Assembly (NCBI RefSeq): GCF_003334815.1 | Contig: NZ_QOWO01000067.1 | Source: Escherichia coli | GTDB lineage: Bacteria > Pseudomonadota > Gammaproteobacteria > Enterobacterales > Enterobacteriaceae | DNA: 7,586 nt | Reading direction: 5' to 3' (one strand) | Part shown: piece after piece, positions 158 to 6,260 of the stretch | How positions within the stretch are numbered: the first letter of the stretch is position 1 | How the letters are laid out: every line of letters begins with the position of its first letter | The notes under the pieces: generated by a model | What the model was told of the DNA's origin: nothing | Database searches by the model: none | What the model saw: the letters and a program-made list of their open reading frames with translations, nothing else | Position numbers and translations under genes: made by a program

Positions 158-574
158 TCAGTCATCTCCGAACATATTTTCAGCGTTTCTTCTGGTCTGG
201 TCTTCACCGTCATTTCTCGACAGACTCTGCTCTGTAAGAGGAGTACTGCAATCCACAGACGTATGGAGACCAGATTGTTTTTCCAGTAATTCAAGCAATT
301 TCTTTTCAACCGAAAAAGCACCTGGTATTACGCTGGAAATCACCTTATTAATATCATCCAGAGTCGTATTTTCTGTCAGTAACTCCGATATCAGCAAAGG
401 AAGACGTTTATCTATAGCTGCAAACGCCGCACCAGTAACTAACATCGCGCGCATGAAACGTCCCCGCTCCTTCAGTTTTTCATTTGCAATGAGCTCATCT
501 GCTATCTTATCTCCTGTCCGTTCATCCGGGAAAAGTTCAAATGAGCAGCGTCTGGATTTATTTTCATCACTCAT
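158..574 (-). CDS. parR: ParR/StbB-like centromere-binding adaptor of a type II (actin-type) partition system
   Basis: 138-aa ORF. The N-terminal region (RRCSFELFPDERTGDKIADEL...ERGRFMRAMLVTGAAF...LLISELLTENTTLDDINKVI) follows the pattern I associate with the ParR family N-terminal ribbon-helix-helix, and it has an acidic C-terminal tail. ATG at 574..572 overlaps the parM stop (ATGAGTGA, 8-nt overlap). GGTGGT-type Shine-Dalgarno about 9 nt upstream. Confidence 0.8.
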   Translation of the reverse strand: MSDENKSRRCSFELFPDERTGDKIADELIANEKLKERGRFMRAMLVTGAAFAAIDKRLPLLISELLTENTTLDDINKVISSVIPGAFSVEKKLLELLEKQSGLHTSVDCSTPLTEQSLSRNDGEDQTRRNAENMFGDD

Positions 575-1547
575 TAGTCACACCACCTTTCATTTTTATC
601 ATTCCCATGACTAAATCAAACTGCGGGGATGAGCTCAGATAAAAGCGCTCATCAGGAACCTTAGTCAGGTTCTTCACAGCCTCGGCCACAATTTCAGCCC
701 CACCACCAACACACATTACATGTGTATAGTCGGTGAAACGGCTGATGACATCATTAACTCGTTTAATAAGCAACTTCTGCCGTTCATTGATAACATTAAT
801 GATAGACTCACGCTGTTCAGCATTATAAATGCGACGGGAAAGGTAGTCAGGTTCATTACGGTGCACAATGATATTGTCAGCCTGGAATGAGCTCACTCTT
901 GTATTAGCATGTACAGCCATCTGTTCCTTAACCCCGGATGTAATCAGGGACACGCCGATATTCGGATCACACCAGGTTTTTGTAATCCCTGTCATTTTGC
1001 TACGAACATGCGACACATCAAGAGTTGTACCACCGAGATCTACGATCAAAAGGGATTCATCATCCTCAAGCCCCGCAAGAACACTGAAACCAGCGGGAAT
1101 ACTTTCAGGAAGAACGGAAACACTGCGAATAACAAATGCATCACTCCCCTGCACCCGTACTTCACGCATCACATTTTTTTTCTTTCTTTCAATGTTTTGC
1201 TTATTTTTCTGATTGTTGGCGTCAAGGTATTCAGAGATCGGCAATGTGACGATGACATCAACAGGCTGCGCTTTCAGGCCGGTCTGCTGTAGCGCATGCT
1301 GAATGGCCACAACATTCACATCACTGTACTGATAGCGTGTTTCAGTCGTTACGACAGCATCAGCACTTAATGGATCAAATGAAAACTTCTCGCCGTCGAT
1401 CTCGTAATTAGCCGGAGCAGCATCATCCAGTAAACTAAAAGACCATTCCGGTTTAAAGCTGTTAGGGCTGATTAACGTTTTCACGTCACCATCCTCCAAC
1501 CAGGCAAGTTTAATGTTGGTAGAACCATCATCAATAAAGATTTTCAT
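567..1547 (-). CDS. parM: ParM/StbA-like actin-type plasmid segregation ATPase
   Basis: The track ORF 567..1616 contains MKIFIDDGSTNIKLAW..., the phosphate-1 DxGxT/S motif typical of the ParM/StbA N-terminus, plus VDLGGTTLDV (phosphate 2) and CVGGGAEIV (adenosine motif). I place the start at the ATG 1547..1545 (M24 of the track ORF), which has GGAG 8 nt upstream and gives 326 aa, a typical ParM length. The stop overlaps the parR start. Confidence 0.9.
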   Translation of the reverse strand: MKIFIDDGSTNIKLAWLEDGDVKTLISPNSFKPEWSFSLLDDAAPANYEIDGEKFSFDPLSADAVVTTETRYQYSDVNVVAIQHALQQTGLKAQPVDVIVTLPISEYLDANNQKNKQNIERKKKNVMREVRVQGSDAFVIRSVSVLPESIPAGFSVLAGLEDDESLLIVDLGGTTLDVSHVRSKMTGITKTWCDPNIGVSLITSGVKEQMAVHANTRVSSFQADNIIVHRNEPDYLSRRIYNAEQRESIINVINERQKLLIKRVNDVISRFTDYTHVMCVGGGAEIVAEAVKNLTKVPDERFYLSSSPQFDLVMGMIKMKGGVTNE

Positions 1548-1960
1548 AACCAGTCTCCGTTGCTCATAAACAAATAGAAAAAACAAACATGCTTCATACA
1601 TGCAATGTATATTCAATTATAATGAAAAAACGGTCTTTCTGAAAGGACAAATGCAACATAAAAACACGATAAATTGCATGTACATTGTACACACAACTTT
1701 AAGACCAGAGGAAATCATAGATACAAAAACATTATGAAGGTTATATGTGACACATAAATGCAATATAAAAACATCGTGGACATCATGGTTCAGGTTAAGG
1801 GAAAAGGAATGAAATGGTGAAACTGAGAGGAAAGGAAAGCGGTGACGAATCATGTCACCATAAACAGAAAGATGTCTAATGGGGACTCTTTAGGTACGTG
1901 AAGAATCCCCATAACGCATTTAAAAGACACACATCAGATACCCTTAAGGTATCCGATAGT
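1548..1960. promoter_or_regulatory. parC-like centromere/promoter region upstream of parMR, also the downstream flank of the ParA/RHH pair
   Basis: AT-rich non-coding stretch with repeated ATGCAA/TTGCAT units (around 1600, 1650, 1673, 1758). The unit AAATGCAA(C/T)ATAAAAACA occurs twice (about 1649..1667 and 1756..1774). Palindromes: ATACATgcaATGTAT near 1596..1610, GGTGAC-N7-GTCACC at 1839..1857, GATACC-cttaa-GGTATC at 1937..1953. The position matches a type II centromere/promoter; exact binding sites are not determined. Confidence 0.55.
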
Positions 1961-2269
1961 TTATTGACCTATTGCACCATCACGTTCAAGCTTCTCTCTT
2001 ATAGCCTCAATAATATATGAGCTAAAATCCAGAGATGTTTTACTGGTCGCTTTAAGTTCCGCATGAGCTTCAAAATACGACAGCGGTATGGCCTTAAGAT
2101 TCTTAGCCTTCGTCCTGGCAGCCACGGGACGACCTGAAACTTCCTCTGCACCTTCATTTGGCTGAGACGGGGCTGTTGCTGTTACGGCAGAAGAAGAAGT
2201 TTGTAATCTGGCAGAATCCACCAGGTTTTTCAGTTTTTCAGCCTGTGCACTAAATTTCGCTTTGCTCAT
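1961..2269 (-). CDS. Small ribbon-helix-helix-like DNA-binding protein, candidate ParG/ParB-type partner of the upstream ParA-like ATPase
   Basis: 102-aa ORF directly downstream of the ParA-like gene on the same strand. The C-terminus (AIPLSYFEAHAELKATSKTSLDFSSYIIEAIREKLER) fits a beta-strand/helix/loop/helix RHH pattern, preceded by a low-complexity, probably flexible N-terminal tail. Shine-Dalgarno is weak and an 86-bp gap separates it from the ParA-like stop, so the assignment is an inference from context. Confidence 0.55.
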   Translation of the reverse strand: MSKAKFSAQAEKLKNLVDSARLQTSSSAVTATAPSQPNEGAEEVSGRPVAARTKAKNLKAIPLSYFEAHAELKATSKTSLDFSSYIIEAIREKLERDGAIGQ

Positions 2270-2355
2270 GAGATAACCCAGGATGTTTGTTAGATACTTA
2301 AAAGATATCCATTAAAAGCCCAAAGGATACTATATGGATACCCAATAGACACACC

Positions 2356-3000
2356 TTACTGTTTGTTATTTTCAATCAGATGATTGATTTCTTCGATCAG
2401 GGCAATAACTTCCTTACCTCCTGCCGAATAGCGCCCATGAACAGACTCAGTGATTCCCATCCCAGTCTCAATGACATCCTCAAATTCTGCACGAGCAGAA
2501 ATGCGGCTCTTCATCAGCTTCAGATGTTTGAACGATGGCAGGATTGCATCAAGCTTAGGGAATTTCTTCTTGTTAGGATTAACTTTACAGAGATACAGGT
2601 GAGCAGTTATATCGGTCCCCATGATAGAGCTGATTTCGTCCAGTACTCCATCAAAATGCATCAAACCAATACGTTCAGTCAGGGAGTCTTTTGAAGGGAC
2701 AATAACGCAGTCTGCAAAGGCAATCGCAGTACGGGTAAGATCTGAGTCAAATCCCCCACAGTCAATAAGTAACGTCTTATCGCTGTTCTTGTAGGGAGTC
2801 ATAATTTCGATTAACTCATCCACTGTTTTGGGTACTTTCACGGAAATTTCTTTTCCTTCAGGTCTCAGCCCCAGAATGATAGAAAGCCCGGTATGAGTAT
2901 CCAGATCAACTGTATCAGACTTCATTTCACCAACAATGTTTACGGATGAAGTTGTCTTACCCACACCACCTTTGGGATGCGTATTAGCAATAACAGGCAT
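2356..3000 (-). CDS. parA: Small ParA-family (ParF-like, type Ib) deviant Walker-A partition ATPase
   Basis: Deviant Walker A KGGVGKTT near the N-terminus, LLIDCGG and a VIVP Walker-B-like hydrophobic strand. Start placed at ATG 3000..2998 (M23 of track ORF 2356..3066), with GGAG 7 nt upstream, giving 214 aa, the size class of type Ib ParA/ParF proteins that lack an N-terminal HTH. Confidence 0.8.
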   Translation of the reverse strand: MPVIANTHPKGGVGKTTSSVNIVGEMKSDTVDLDTHTGLSIILGLRPEGKEISVKVPKTVDELIEIMTPYKNSDKTLLIDCGGFDSDLTRTAIAFADCVIVPSKDSLTERIGLMHFDGVLDEISSIMGTDITAHLYLCKVNPNKKKFPKLDAILPSFKHLKLMKSRISARAEFEDVIETGMGITESVHGRYSAGGKEVIALIEEINHLIENNKQ

Positions 3001-3179
3001 AGTGTATCTCCAGAATCCACATGTAATACCCATAAAGACCCCATAAGACACCTTTCGGATATCCAAGAGGTACTCAATAGATGTTTTTTTACTCTATACC
3101 GGTCCTGCATGTCAACAGAATATGAAATACCGATAATATATCCATGAGATATCCGAAAGGGATTTAAAAAAGTCAGAGC
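3001..3179. promoter_or_regulatory. Promoter/operator region upstream of the ParA-like gene
   Basis: Non-coding gap between the recombinase stop (3180) and the ParA-like start (3000). Contains the palindrome GGATATCC (3057..3064) and GATATCC (3148..3154), related to GGATAC/GATACC motifs on the other side of the operon. Confidence 0.4.
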
Positions 3180-3959
3180 TTATGGAATTCTTTTGAGCAT
3201 AGACACCGCATCGGACTCAGGCATCGAAAACTGCACCCGGTGCCGTGCAGCCACATCCAGTGCAAACACCTTCGTGTAGACCTCCGTTGAGCTGATGGAC
3301 TTATGCCCCATCAGGCTCTGCAGGACCTTCAGCGGTATACCGGCATACAGCATATGCATCGCATAGGAATGGCGGAACGTATGTGGCGTGACCGGGACAG
3401 AGAACGTCACACCGTCAGCGGCAGCGGCGGCAACCGCCTCCCCAATCCAGGTCCTGACCGTTCTGTCCGTCACTTCCCATATCCGCGCTTTCTCTGTCCT
3501 GCCTGTTCGTTTATTACGCCGTTCCATGGGGATTTTCAGTGTGGCCACCATCGTCTGCAGCTGGCTGACGTACCAGGCGTCGGAGAGCGGAACCAGCCGG
3601 TGAGTCTGCTGACCGGCGGGCATTCTTCCTGCCGTCCTGGCGGCTTTTTCCGTCCGTTGTTTCAGGGTCGCAAGCTGCACAAACGGATACGGAGGCGTGA
3701 GCGAAAAATCCCCCCGCGTCAGCGCCAGTGCTTCATTAATGCGCGCACCGGTGTTCCACAGTGTGGCCAGCAGCATCTTGCGGCGCAGATCCGGGACGTA
3801 ATGGAGCAGGGCGCTCACTTCAGGGGCCAGCAGGTATTTGGGCAGTTCATCATGAACCATCGACATCTGGCGGAGTGCCAGCGCTGCCGGATAATCGATG
3901 GCAACAGGAAGCTGAGCGGCATCCCGGGCATGGTGGATCGGTGCCGGCAGGTGCTGCAT
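3180..3959 (-). CDS. Tyrosine site-specific recombinase (plasmid resolvase/integrase family, ResD-like)
   Basis: The C-terminal region carries the tyrosine-recombinase box II signature HTFRHSYAMHML...LMGHKSISSTEVYTKV (His-x-x-Arg, then His, then the catalytic Tyr), and an ARINEAL-type box I arginine sits earlier. Start placed at ATG 3959..3957 (M52 of track ORF 3180..4112), 1 nt after the stop of the upstream ORF, giving 259 aa. Overall it resembles plasmid multimer-resolution recombinases of F-like/I-like plasmids, as recalled from memory, not searched. Confidence 0.85.
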   Translation of the reverse strand: MQHLPAPIHHARDAAQLPVAIDYPAALALRQMSMVHDELPKYLLAPEVSALLHYVPDLRRKMLLATLWNTGARINEALALTRGDFSLTPPYPFVQLATLKQRTEKAARTAGRMPAGQQTHRLVPLSDAWYVSQLQTMVATLKIPMERRNKRTGRTEKARIWEVTDRTVRTWIGEAVAAAAADGVTFSVPVTPHTFRHSYAMHMLYAGIPLKVLQSLMGHKSISSTEVYTKVFALDVAARHRVQFSMPESDAVSMLKRIP

Positions 3960-4410: not shown

Positions 4411-4495
4411 CATGCGATAACGTCATCCATCATCACTGCCCTTACCGTCACTCCGTCTGATAACATCATGCCGTTATCATCATCACCATGATAAC
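4411..4495. repeat. GATAAC/CATG repeat cluster, candidate recombination site or operator for the adjacent recombinase operon
   Basis: GATAAC at 4416..4421, 4459..4464 and 4490..4495, inverted GTTATC at 4473..4478, and CATCATCAC twice (about 4429..4436 and 4479..4486). Three GATAAC copies abut CATG. Lies 40 to 120 bp upstream of the operon start at 4374. Confidence 0.35.
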
Positions 4496-4811
4496 AAGCA
4501 TCCATATAACCACGCCGTTAAATTACCGGAGAGCCGTTTCCGTCAGATCCGACTTTTCGGAATATCACAACTTTCCGGAAGTGTACCACGCTGAGGAAAT
4601 AATCATATCGCTGTTTTCCGCCCCTGCGCGGCGCATCACAGGTCAGGGAGATGACACAACATATAGTGTCATCAGCAGCTGAATCCGGCACCACATGTTG
4701 TGCTGACGGGAGGTGGCGTTGTGTGGGGGGAGAAGAAGATCCGTAACCGCCGGAAACCGGATCTGCGCGGCGGGAAACGGGCAAGTGATATGGTAATTGA
4801 GCAATACACAC

Positions 4812-4942: not shown

Positions 4943-5197
4943 ATGGATGAAGAAAGGGTGTTTTCACTCAGCTATGAGCAACTAACCCGAATAGCGGAAA
5001 AAAATATCCGTGAATGTGGGCTGGACAACCAGAGCGCCAGGTGTATCAGTGAACTGAAGGCCTCAGCTCTGCTGTGGTTGTGGTATGAACTGGCCATTCA
5101 TGGTGCGCCACAGAACAATCACGCACAGGCCCGGGAACGCATCGATACCGATTATCAGCGCCTCAAAAAACTCATCTGGTCGGAGGGTGACAGTTAA
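4943..5197 (+). CDS. Hypothetical 84-aa protein, first gene of a two-gene operon
   Basis: ATG at 4943 with GGAG about 10 nt upstream. The stop TAA (5195..5197) overlaps the next ATG (TAATG). No transmembrane segment; family not recognised. The + strand is preferred over the long antisense ORF (5063..5803, -), whose translation is an Arg/Pro/Ala-rich artefact typical of the reverse strand of a GC-rich gene. Confidence 0.55.
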   Translation: MDEERVFSLSYEQLTRIAEKNIRECGLDNQSARCISELKASALLWLWYELAIHGAPQNNHAQARERIDTDYQRLKKLIWSEGDS

Positions 5198-5787
5198 TGA
5201 CTCAGAGCCGCCGACCGTCGCCACTGCAGCGGAGAGTGCTGATTGTGCTGGCTGCGCTTGATGAAAAACGGCCGGGCCCCGTGCTGACGCGGGACCTGGA
5301 ACGGGTGCTGGAGCGAAGCGGGGAAGCCCCGGTCTACGGGCCAAACCTGCGCGCCTCCTGCCGTCGTCTGGAGGATGCCGGCTGGCTGCGTACCCTGCGC
5401 GCCCCGAACCTGCAGCTGGCAGTGGAGCTGACGGACGCCGGCCGGGCCGTGGCACAGCCTCTGCTGCTGGCAGAACAGGACCGCCTCCGGGCAGAACAGC
5501 GTGCGGCAGAAGTCGTCGTACTGCCGCTGGTCCCGGCAGCAGGTCTGCCCGCAGACGGCACTTCTGCCACTGATCTGGCGGTGGAGCTGAACGGCATAAC
5601 GTATCAGGCCTGCCGCGGGGATTTTGTGGTGCGTCTCGACGGCAGCACCTGTCTGCAGTTATGGAATAAAGAAGGCAGGGTGGTACGCCGGGAGGGCGAT
5701 CCGCTGGAAGTGGCGCAGTGGCTGCAGGCCTGTCATGACGCAGGAATAGAGGTTCGCGTACAGATAAATGAAAGTGCCGCTCCGTAA
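5197..5787 (+). CDS. Hypothetical 196-aa protein, possible winged-helix DNA-binding N-terminal domain
   Basis: ATG at 5197 overlaps the upstream stop. The N-terminal ~90 aa (LQRRVLIVLAALDEKRPGPVLTRDLERVLERSG...) has the hydrophobic/charged periodicity of a winged-helix domain (inference). The C-terminal ~100 aa is unrecognised. Markedly GC-rich compared with the rest of the window. Confidence 0.55.
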   Translation: MTQSRRPSPLQRRVLIVLAALDEKRPGPVLTRDLERVLERSGEAPVYGPNLRASCRRLEDAGWLRTLRAPNLQLAVELTDAGRAVAQPLLLAEQDRLRAEQRAAEVVVLPLVPAAGLPADGTSATDLAVELNGITYQACRGDFVVRLDGSTCLQLWNKEGRVVRREGDPLEVAQWLQACHDAGIEVRVQINESAAP

Positions 5788-6192: not shown

Positions 6193-6260
6193 TTATTGTT
6201 ATTGATTATTATTATCATGCTGTGATTATGTTATCACGCACCGGTACACGATAACAATAA
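6193..6260. promoter_or_regulatory. Inverted-repeat-flanked promoter region upstream of the immunity gene
   Basis: Perfect 10-bp inverted repeat TTATTGTTAT (6193..6202) and ATAACAATAA (6251..6260), separated by 48 bp that contain two TGATTAT-N-TTATCA(T/C)G direct repeats. An AAGGAG Shine-Dalgarno lies 7 nt before the ATG at 6273. Confidence 0.4.

Follow-up and report, generated by a model that had tools for sequence, protein, structure and literature searches.

Phased 11-bp repeat arrays upstream of, between and downstream of yefA and yegA: the predicted centromere/operator of a probable type Ib partition locus on R64-type IncI1 plasmids

Introduction

Why do short motifs related to GGATAC and GATATCC recur upstream of, between and downstream of two small genes on an Escherichia coli plasmid, and which protein would read them? 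The question arises from E. coli contig NZ_QOWO01000067.1, of which we analysed a stretch of 7,586 nt (the whole of it is called the window here). The two genes are yefA, which encodes a ParA-like ATPase, and yegA, which encodes a protein of 102 amino acids (aa); both names were taken from one annotated relative. The original prediction held that the motifs are operator or centromere sites lying on both flanks of, and inside, a type Ib partition operon, and it conceded that so short a motif might occur by chance. Our analysis suggests, with a probability of roughly 80%, that the motifs belong to arrays of YegA binding sites that would serve as both centromere and operator, that YegA is the partner of the ParF-like YefA, and that the two genes form a type Ib partition locus of R64-type IncI1 plasmids.

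R64-type IncI1 plasmids are major carriers of extended-spectrum beta-lactamase (ESBL) and CMY-2 resistance genes, and the published work on partition in the I-complex concerns another locus, that of the pESBL/pMS7163B type. A literature search on IncI1 partition and on yefA/yegA found no work on the present locus, which is new and previously uncharacterised; a conserved array between its two genes is its unusual feature. The interest of the locus rests on its prevalence in resistance plasmids, on a mis-annotated protein family and on this intergenic array, and a mapped probable centromere/operator provides targets for stability, incompatibility and plasmid-curing experiments.

Results

The motif copies are units of four 11-bp repeat arrays

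Checked against the sequence, all of the motif copies named in the original prediction lie where it had placed them (Table 1). They are real copies of a common word, but instead of standing alone as palindromes they turn out to be the best-matching units of four arrays that together hold about 22 degenerate repeats, run in the same orientation in 11-bp phase and occupy the non-coding DNA around yefA and yegA. The repeat consensus is AGATACCCATA on the plus strand and TATGGGTATCT on the gene strand, and within each unit an A/T-rich spacer follows the core GG(A/T)TATC(C/T), which is approximately two-fold symmetric. A repeat search returned a family of five copies whose neighbours are 11 bp apart, and in-register rows become visible when the sequence is written 11 bp wide.

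Because the word RGATAYC was chosen after inspection of the sequence, two motif-free tests, lag self-similarity and a blind 6-mer count, were added. Of lags 1-33, lag 11 gave the strongest self-similarity in every one of the four non-coding segments (z = 3.1-3.6), with z = 5.2 over 3001-3179, and the best three 88-bp windows for lag-11 identity in the whole 7.6 kb start at 3108, 3014 and 2281. The blind count in non-coding DNA ranked GTATCT, GGTATC and GGGTAT first, with 13, 12 and 12 near-matches, respectively, in 321 nt of non-coding sequence versus 3, 2 and 4 in 955 nt of coding sequence. At the level of single units, 22 of the 25 in-frame units exceeded the 95th percentile of the background in a leave-one-out profile, and 18 exceeded the 99th. 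In addition, a profile built from array M alone detected both the upstream and the downstream arrays (z = 4.6 versus shuffles).

Within the window, the heptamer counts are moderately unusual: GGATAYC matches seven times versus 1.9 expected and GATAYCC seven times versus 1.7 expected, numbers that were reached in 3 and 1 of 200 shuffles, respectively. The hexamer GGATAC, with six occurrences in the window versus 2.9 expected (15 of 200 shuffles), is not significantly enriched. Six of seven heptamer matches fall inside the 326 bp of non-coding DNA around yefA/yegA. The segment 1850-3250 of the window is 100% identical to E. coli plasmid p95 (NZ_CP023356; 94,881 bp), and on the whole of p95, 9 of the 75 RGATAYC positions lie in those 326 bp, where 0.26 would be expected (binomial P = 7e-12), as do 5 of the 15 RGATAYCC positions (P = 1e-9). 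The motif density there is 40- to 145-fold above that of the rest of p95, in which no comparable cluster was found. The original prediction had proposed to compare the motif frequency on the whole plasmid with that in these non-coding regions; the comparison spoke for it, RGATAYC being about 40-fold denser in the latter, and its own caveat of chance occurrence is excluded by the p95 enrichment, the lag-11 signal and the 6-mer ranking.

Table 1. Positions in the window of the two genes, the repeat arrays, the motif copies and associated elements
Feature	Position	Strand	Remarks
ParM-like gene	567-1547	-	downstream neighbour of yegA
Array D	1925-1957	-	3 units directly 3' of the yegA stop: AGACACACATC, AGATACCCTTA, AGGTATCCGAT; lag 11 z 3.1; unit scores 6.3, 10.6 and 7.8 bits; an extra matching unit at 1903-1913 scores 7.3
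Palindrome/hairpin	1932-1958	-	potential RNA hairpin (12 bp) in the 3'-terminal part of the operon transcript
GATACC-N5-GGTATC palindrome	1937-1953		downstream of yegA
yegA	1961-2269	-	102 aa, candidate centromere-binding protein
Array M	2270-2357	-	8 units filling the 86-bp gap from the yefA stop to the yegA start; lag 11 z 3.4, lag 22 z 3.2
GATATCC	2304-2310		between yefA and yegA
GGATAC	2325-2330		between yefA and yegA
GGATACC	2336-2342		between yefA and yegA
yefA	2356-3000	-	ParA-like Walker ATPase, 214 aa
Array U1	3013-3089	-	7 units, from the -10 to the Shine-Dalgarno GGAG of yefA; lag 11 z 3.6; leave-one-out scores 3.3-9.6 bits
13-bp inverted repeat CCTTTCGGATATC	3051-3063 and 3148-3160		perfect (100% complementary); brackets the promoter-like element
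GGATATCC	3057-3064		perfect palindrome upstream of yefA, in array U1
TTGACA-N18-TAAAAA	3086-3115	-	promoter-like; -35 at 3115-3110, -10-like at 3091-3086
Array U2	3125-3168	-	3-4 units just upstream of the -35, on the plus strand AAATACCGATA, ATATATCCATG, AGATATCCGAA, AGGGATTTAAA; lag 11 z 3.2; leave-one-out scores 5.2, 3.9, 9.7 and 2.0 bits (background 99th percentile 3.7)
GATATCC	3148-3154		upstream of yefA, in array U2

Homologous loci keep the geometry and change the motif with the small protein

We compared 14 other distinct loci that encode a YegA homologue with 25-75% identity (L007-L012, L015-L018 and L022-L025). Six lie on plasmids of Klebsiella, Yersinia, Enterobacter and Aeromonas, four come from Pectobacterium, Cedecea, Kosakonia and a metagenome, and four are distant representatives of the family. 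In all 14 loci the yegA homologue follows a ParA-like gene, and in 13 the two genes are separated by 53-105 bp of non-coding DNA, L024 being the one without a gap. For L010, whose start codon is probably annotated too far downstream, the annotated gap of 152 bp was counted as 89 bp by way of an assumed upstream start. Lag 11 or 22 was the top lag within this gap in 12 of the 13 loci. Downstream arrays with a motif of the locus's own occur in nine or ten loci, depending on the count, and lag 11 or 22 ranked first in the downstream DNA of nine, with plain hairpins instead in L012, L023 and L025, and upstream arrays occur in most; the arrays inside and downstream of the operon are more conserved than those at the promoter. 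The core positions of the window's array U1 are retained in L007, L015 and L016.

The repeat period is constant across these loci, and the core changes by clade of the small protein. The core is GGTATCC / GTGTCT in the window, L007, L015 and L016; TGTATAC / GGATAC in L017 and L018; TGTATWT in L008; GGAATCC in L009 and L010; TGTACAT / TGTACAC in L011 and L012; and GATATCT-like in L022 and L025. When profiles of the intergenic arrays were compared with the flanks of all other loci, the blocks of high and low scores followed the similarity of the small (ParB) protein. Moreover, loci without an adjacent tyrosine recombinase or a downstream ParM (L007, L008, L011, L012, L017 and L023) still carry arrays of their own motif. 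These results illustrated that the arrays exist, are phased and are confined to the locus, and that relatives keep the layout while the motif shifts with the protein. Binding sites of a protein would be expected to show just this combination, a fixed geometry and a motif co-varying with that protein, and it is mainly for this reason that we place confidence in the assignment to YegA.

YefA is a small ParA-like ATPase and YegA a candidate centromere-binding protein

ParA proteins of type Ib are small (about 200-220 aa), carry the deviant Walker A motif KGGxxGK[ST] and have no N-terminal extension. YefA shares all of these features, with KGGVGKT at residues 10-16 and no N-terminal DNA-binding extension. 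It matches phrog_164, as well as the profile NF041546 ParA_partition with an E-value of 1.6e-14 and a score of 53.9 bits, which is under the curated cut-off of 180 bits. A profile of the YefA family matched TP228 ParF (4dzz) and the 214-aa 'ParA' 5u1g over the full length (E about 1e-18). As in type Ib operons, the gene directly downstream encodes a small partner that is unrelated to the helix-turn-helix proteins ParB/Spo0J: YegA contains no ParB/Spo0J domain.

No sequence match of YegA was found in Pfam, NCBIfam or PDB, either with the protein alone or with profiles of 41 and 63 sequences. Likewise, no Pfam domain was found in any of the 41 and 63 family members scanned, and phmmer/hmmsearch against the PDB sequences gave no meaningful match to the family with three different queries; its only family match is a PHROG of unknown function. 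YegA belongs to a small family, with 363 clusters when grouped at 90% identity; at 50% it has 79 representatives among 1.84 billion proteins. YegA and its relatives bear the public names 'molecular chaperone GroEL', 'chaperonin', 'molecular chaperone' or 'hypothetical'. We found no support for the chaperone name in the sequence, size or genomic context of YegA, which is mis-named in public annotation.

In the AlphaFold model of YegA (mean pLDDT 67), residues 6-19 form a helix that is joined by a disordered linker to an extended segment (59-64), after which come two helices (65-74 and 79-97). Close relatives hardly vary in either the N-terminal segment or the C-terminal domain, and the consensus of the wider family reads K-x-L-x-x-x-P...L-K-x-x-G-x-T-x-L-x-F-S-x-Y-I-x-E-A-x-R-E-K-L-E-R-D-G, with G-x-T between the two C-terminal helices. 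The signature of ribbon-helix-helix proteins is a strand-helix-helix order with G-x-S/T between the helices, and the centromere-binding protein of many, though not all, type Ib systems is a dimer of this fold. With hhalign, the YegA family aligned with Arc over the whole domain and in register, but weakly (E = 0.007 and 0.018, at low probability, with a hand-entered Arc sequence), and comparison with ParG and omega, both likewise hand-entered, yielded nothing. A ribbon-helix-helix fold is plausible for YegA.

A promoter-like element, an inverted repeat and hairpins accompany the arrays

Arrays U2 and U1 flank the promoter-like element TTGACA-N18-TAAAAA, which, judged by its sequence, is the probable promoter of the operon. 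A corresponding TTGAC(A/T)-N18-TAAAAA stands at the equivalent place in L007 and L015 despite diverged spacers. When the sequence was read by eye, no convincing internal promoter for yegA was found, and no in-frame upstream extension of yegA is possible. The A run in the putative -10 (TAAAAAAAC, 3084-3091) is one base shorter in R64, L019 and L020, which represents a homopolymer length polymorphism within the promoter-like element.

The same element is bracketed by the 13-bp perfect inverted repeat, whose centres are 97 bp and whose arms are 84 bp apart. In L019, 12 of the 13 positions are kept, and in L020 the repeat is more degraded, so that the extended symmetry is not strictly kept; since it is degraded in a 97.6%-identical relative, no special role was assigned to it. 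The core sites of tyrosine recombinases have arms 6-8 bp apart; a recombination site was ruled out here on account of the 84 bp between the arms and the lack of conservation in L020.

On the gene strand, a scanner called 1932-1958 terminator-like, with 12 pairs, 4 of them G-C, and the tail TGTGTCTTTT. The two-hairpin region downstream of yegA has a minimum free energy of -30.9 kcal/mol (z = -4.3). Its second stable hairpin lies on the minus strand at about 1880-1920 (GGGGAUUCUUC...GAAGAGUCCCC, 11-bp stem), about 40 nt past the yegA stop and between the type Ib operon and the region upstream of the ParM-like gene, and the operon transcript may in fact end there. No known RNA family was found in the window with Rfam.

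Discussion

At the level of sequence, the locus displays what distinguishes type Ib systems: a small deviant-Walker ParA, a small unrelated partner and iterated repeats adjoining the operon, the last being present, phased, specific to the locus and conserved, with a predicted role as a centromere. The proposal of centromere/operator sites upstream of, inside and downstream of a type Ib operon thus finds support in silico from layout, enrichment, phasing and co-variation, while binding by YegA itself is a prediction. Several points weigh against it. The units are degenerate, their register and boundaries were set by the analyst, and the first unit of array M (2270) is one base out of register. 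The putative -10 is weak, and the consensus promoter scanner did not call TTGACA-N18-TAAAAA because the -10 is without its final T. A literature search found no data on binding, repression or stabilisation for the yefA-yegA locus. Finally, a ParM/ParR-like system adjoins it on R64-type plasmids, so that yefA-yegA could be redundant or mainly regulatory.

That a short A/T-rich word merely recurs by chance, without function, where intergenic DNA is itself rich in A and T would fit the unenriched GGATAC hexamer, the heptamer counts reached in 1-3 of 200 window shuffles and the degeneracy of single units, yet chance is hardly credible in view of the enrichment on p95 (P = 1e-9 to 7e-12), the motif-free lag-11 signal in four separate segments, the recovery of the motif by the de novo 6-mer ranking and the recurrence of 11-bp arrays across diverged homologous loci. 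The repeats might instead be bound by another protein, namely ResD, for which they would be a res site, the ParR-like protein that the neighbouring ParM system encodes, or a nucleoid protein of the host. Consistent with such a reader, resD ends only 1 bp beyond the upstream non-coding region (at 3180), the ParM gene lies downstream with lag-11 similarity in its own upstream region, and the 13-bp perfect inverted repeat is present. What renders another reader quite improbable is that the six loci without an adjacent recombinase or a downstream ParM keep own-motif arrays, that the motif tracks the clade of the small protein, that the arms of the inverted repeat are 84 bp apart rather than 6-8 bp as in recombinase core sites, and that a different word, ATGCAAT, recurs in the DNA upstream of the ParM-like gene.

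Two further explanations were considered. Arrays that act only as a transcriptional operator, or as phased A/T tracts inducing curvature, with YefA and YegA serving some role other than partition, would agree with a layout typical of repressors (7 units between the -10 and the ribosome-binding site (RBS) and 3-4 upstream of the -35), with the phased A/T-rich spacers and with the presence of a second (ParM) partition system on the plasmid. We think this unlikely, since conservation is higher in the arrays that lie within the operon or 3' of it, at a distance from the promoter, a ParF-like ATPase with a small DNA-binding protein is the defining gene pair of type Ib, double par loci are known in pB171, and a centromere may double as an operator, as the operator boxes of TP228 do (PMC3130281). 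The other explanation concerns a single element and is compatible with YegA binding. The palindrome at 1932-1958, which the original prediction had read as a protein site, does consist of array units in 11-bp register, but it could also be mainly an RNA element, either a terminator or a stabilising 3' hairpin. Its terminator-like score on the gene strand points that way, as do the position of a 12-bp hairpin directly 3' of the stop codon in a two-hairpin region with z = -4.3, the short palindromes that the first two downstream units also form in L007, L015 and L016, and the plain downstream hairpins, without arrays, of L012, L023 and L025. On the other hand, where an intrinsic terminator has a G+C-rich stem-loop and a U-run directly after it, the stem here is A/T-rich (4 of 12 pairs are G-C), the U-run is short and detached from it, the palindromes of L007, L015 and L016 have no U-run, and the palindrome comprises two motif units that are in 11-bp register with a third; because the core is near-palindromic, inverted units yield a hairpin automatically. 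We therefore view a mainly RNA-based role for this element as doubtful, though by no means negligible.

If the arrays are YegA binding sites, the anatomy of the locus and analogy with other systems lead us to the following mechanism. YegA dimers would bind one to each unit, and because the units recur about once per helical turn, the dimers would align on nearly the same face of the DNA and coat it cooperatively. U2, with 3-4 units upstream of the -35, and U1, with 7 units from the -10 to the RBS, bracket the putative promoter, and YegA bound there would autorepress the operon. Together the U, M and D arrays, which extend across some 1.25 kb, would make up the partition complex once coated. 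Through its conserved N-terminal helix, YegA would then contact nucleoid-bound YefA-ATP and stimulate its ATPase, by which plasmid copies would be positioned and separated. As a tentative possibility only, the locus might represent a distinct sub-type of type Ib, with an unannotated family of centromere-binding proteins, with helical-turn-phased units as in the parC of type II, and with a split centromere whose parA-parB array is the most conserved part. Array M lies inside the transcription unit, so ParB occupying it could impede the passage of transcription into parB; if this is true, occupancy of array M would set the ParA:ParB ratio while forming the core of the partition complex.

The spacing of the units recalls a type II system. 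Plasmid R1 carries 11-bp iterons in two blocks flanking the promoter, and they are coated by the small ribbon-helix-helix protein ParR and serve as centromere and operator. The yefA-yegA locus shares with R1 the 11-bp period and the promoter-flanking layout; it differs in that the motor of R1 is the actin-like ParM and not a Walker ParA, and in that parC is a single upstream site. Plasmid pB171, in which Ebersbach and Gerdes reportedly described double par loci in 2001, places a type Ib locus beside a type II locus, as is probably the case here. Its repeats are 6-bp units, and to our knowledge it has no array between parA and parB, unlike yefA-yegA. The position of array M is unusual for a type Ib centromere, an array between parA and parB being a known feature of none of pB171, TP228, R1 and pESBL. 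Some repABC plasmids, which are of type Ia, have centromere sites between repA and repB, so an intergenic position is not without precedent among par systems generally. In other respects the par2 locus of pB171 (parC1-parA-parB-parC2) resembles yefA-yegA, with arrays on both sides of the operon, of which the upstream one is also regulatory (PMC4270457, PMC7602700).

The ParF-ParG-parH/OF system of TP228 is similar in its ParA, the ParA-family profile matching ParF over the full length, and in having a small partner protein whose N-terminal part is flexible and whose C-terminal domain binds DNA, the latter being predicted for YegA. It also has about 20 degenerate short boxes with A/T-rich spacers, some of which double as the promoter operator, and ParG coats these boxes cooperatively (PMC3130281). 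However, its boxes are ACTC tetramers with an 8-bp period and 4-bp A/T spacers, all upstream of parFG (PMC3130281), whereas the present repeats have a core of 7-8 bp, of the GGTATC kind, and recur every 11 bp, and arrays of them stand between the two genes and downstream of the second as well. Membership in the TP228 ParFG-parH group was rejected: hhalign found no similarity of YegA to ParG (again a hand-entered sequence), and the repeats differ.

The par locus of pESBL / pMS7163B (Daniel et al. 2020) is also of type Ib and sits at the same backbone position, beside impCAB. Its ParB has about 100 aa and no known domain, arrays lie upstream and downstream, and both ParB binding and stabilisation of mini-F have been shown experimentally (PMC7602700). 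The differences from yefA-yegA are considerable: its ParA is 24% identical to YefA, its ParB gives no significant alignment to YegA, its genes overlap, hence it has no intergenic array, and its repeats are contiguous 8-bp GATAACAA/TTGTTATC units. No ParB of the pESBL type was found on the plasmid by tblastn. Equating yefA-yegA with the pESBL-type I-complex par (ParB = Hp7) was rejected, given the unrelated ParB and the different repeat unit and spacing.

Within that other group, pESBL-EA11 (L004/L003) and pMS7163B (L006) encode an identical ParA (WP_000587689) and an identical ParB (WP_001245884). R64 instead carries yefA-yegA and the ParM/ParR-like pair. One paper describes the parAB of R64 as being found with full conservation in pESBL and as having no relation to the parAB of pMS7163B (PMC10286972). 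As far as the compared protein sequences tell, these findings do not fit that statement.

Plasmid context and neighbouring elements

The region comprising yefA-yegA and its arrays was found in 1,109 PLSDB plasmids (identity of at least 97.6% over at least 80% of 1850-3250); these are mostly conjugative plasmids, and their hosts are mostly Escherichia and Salmonella. R64, the prototype of IncI1, is 99.85% identical over 1880-3200 and encodes the identical two proteins (WP_001144036 and WP_000030199). On the minus strand the gene order is yedA, resD (encoding the tyrosine recombinase), the ParA-like gene, the 102-aa gene, the ParM-like gene and a ParR/StbB-like gene. The gene impB lies outside the window, and colicin Ia and its immunity gene lie on the opposite side.

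The region upstream of the ParM-like gene (1560-1860) has a repeat set of its own. It contains two copies of the 18-nt direct repeat AAATGCAAYATAAAAACA, at 1649 and 1756, and inverted copies of ATGCAAT/ATTGCAT at 1597-1610 and 1669-1682, and its lag-11 similarity ranks fourth and fifth in the window (88-bp windows starting at 1585 and 1647). The adjacent type II (ParM/ParR-like) system probably has its parC-like site here, and R64-type plasmids would thus probably carry a tandem type Ib and type II double par locus. Such tandem loci suggest why R64-type plasmids may tolerate the loss of one partition system.

In R64/p95 and in L009 and L010, which are Klebsiella and Enterobacter plasmids, the ParA-like gene is preceded, at a distance of 0.8-1 kb, by a gene for a tyrosine recombinase. 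The arrangement suggests that a resolvase and a type Ib par travel jointly as a 'stability module' across otherwise unrelated plasmids.

Clusters of GATAAC/GTTATC were also observed at 4416-4497 and 6196-6257, which places them upstream of yedA and in the interval that separates the DUF6404 gene from that for colicin immunity; they are close to GATAACAA, the octamer consensus of pESBL parS. With at most one mismatch, this octamer matches 20 times in the window versus 7.1 expected, and none of 200 shuffles reached 20. A candidate reader of these clusters is the 196-aa product of the open reading frame at 5197-5787, which appears DNA-binding-like by eye.

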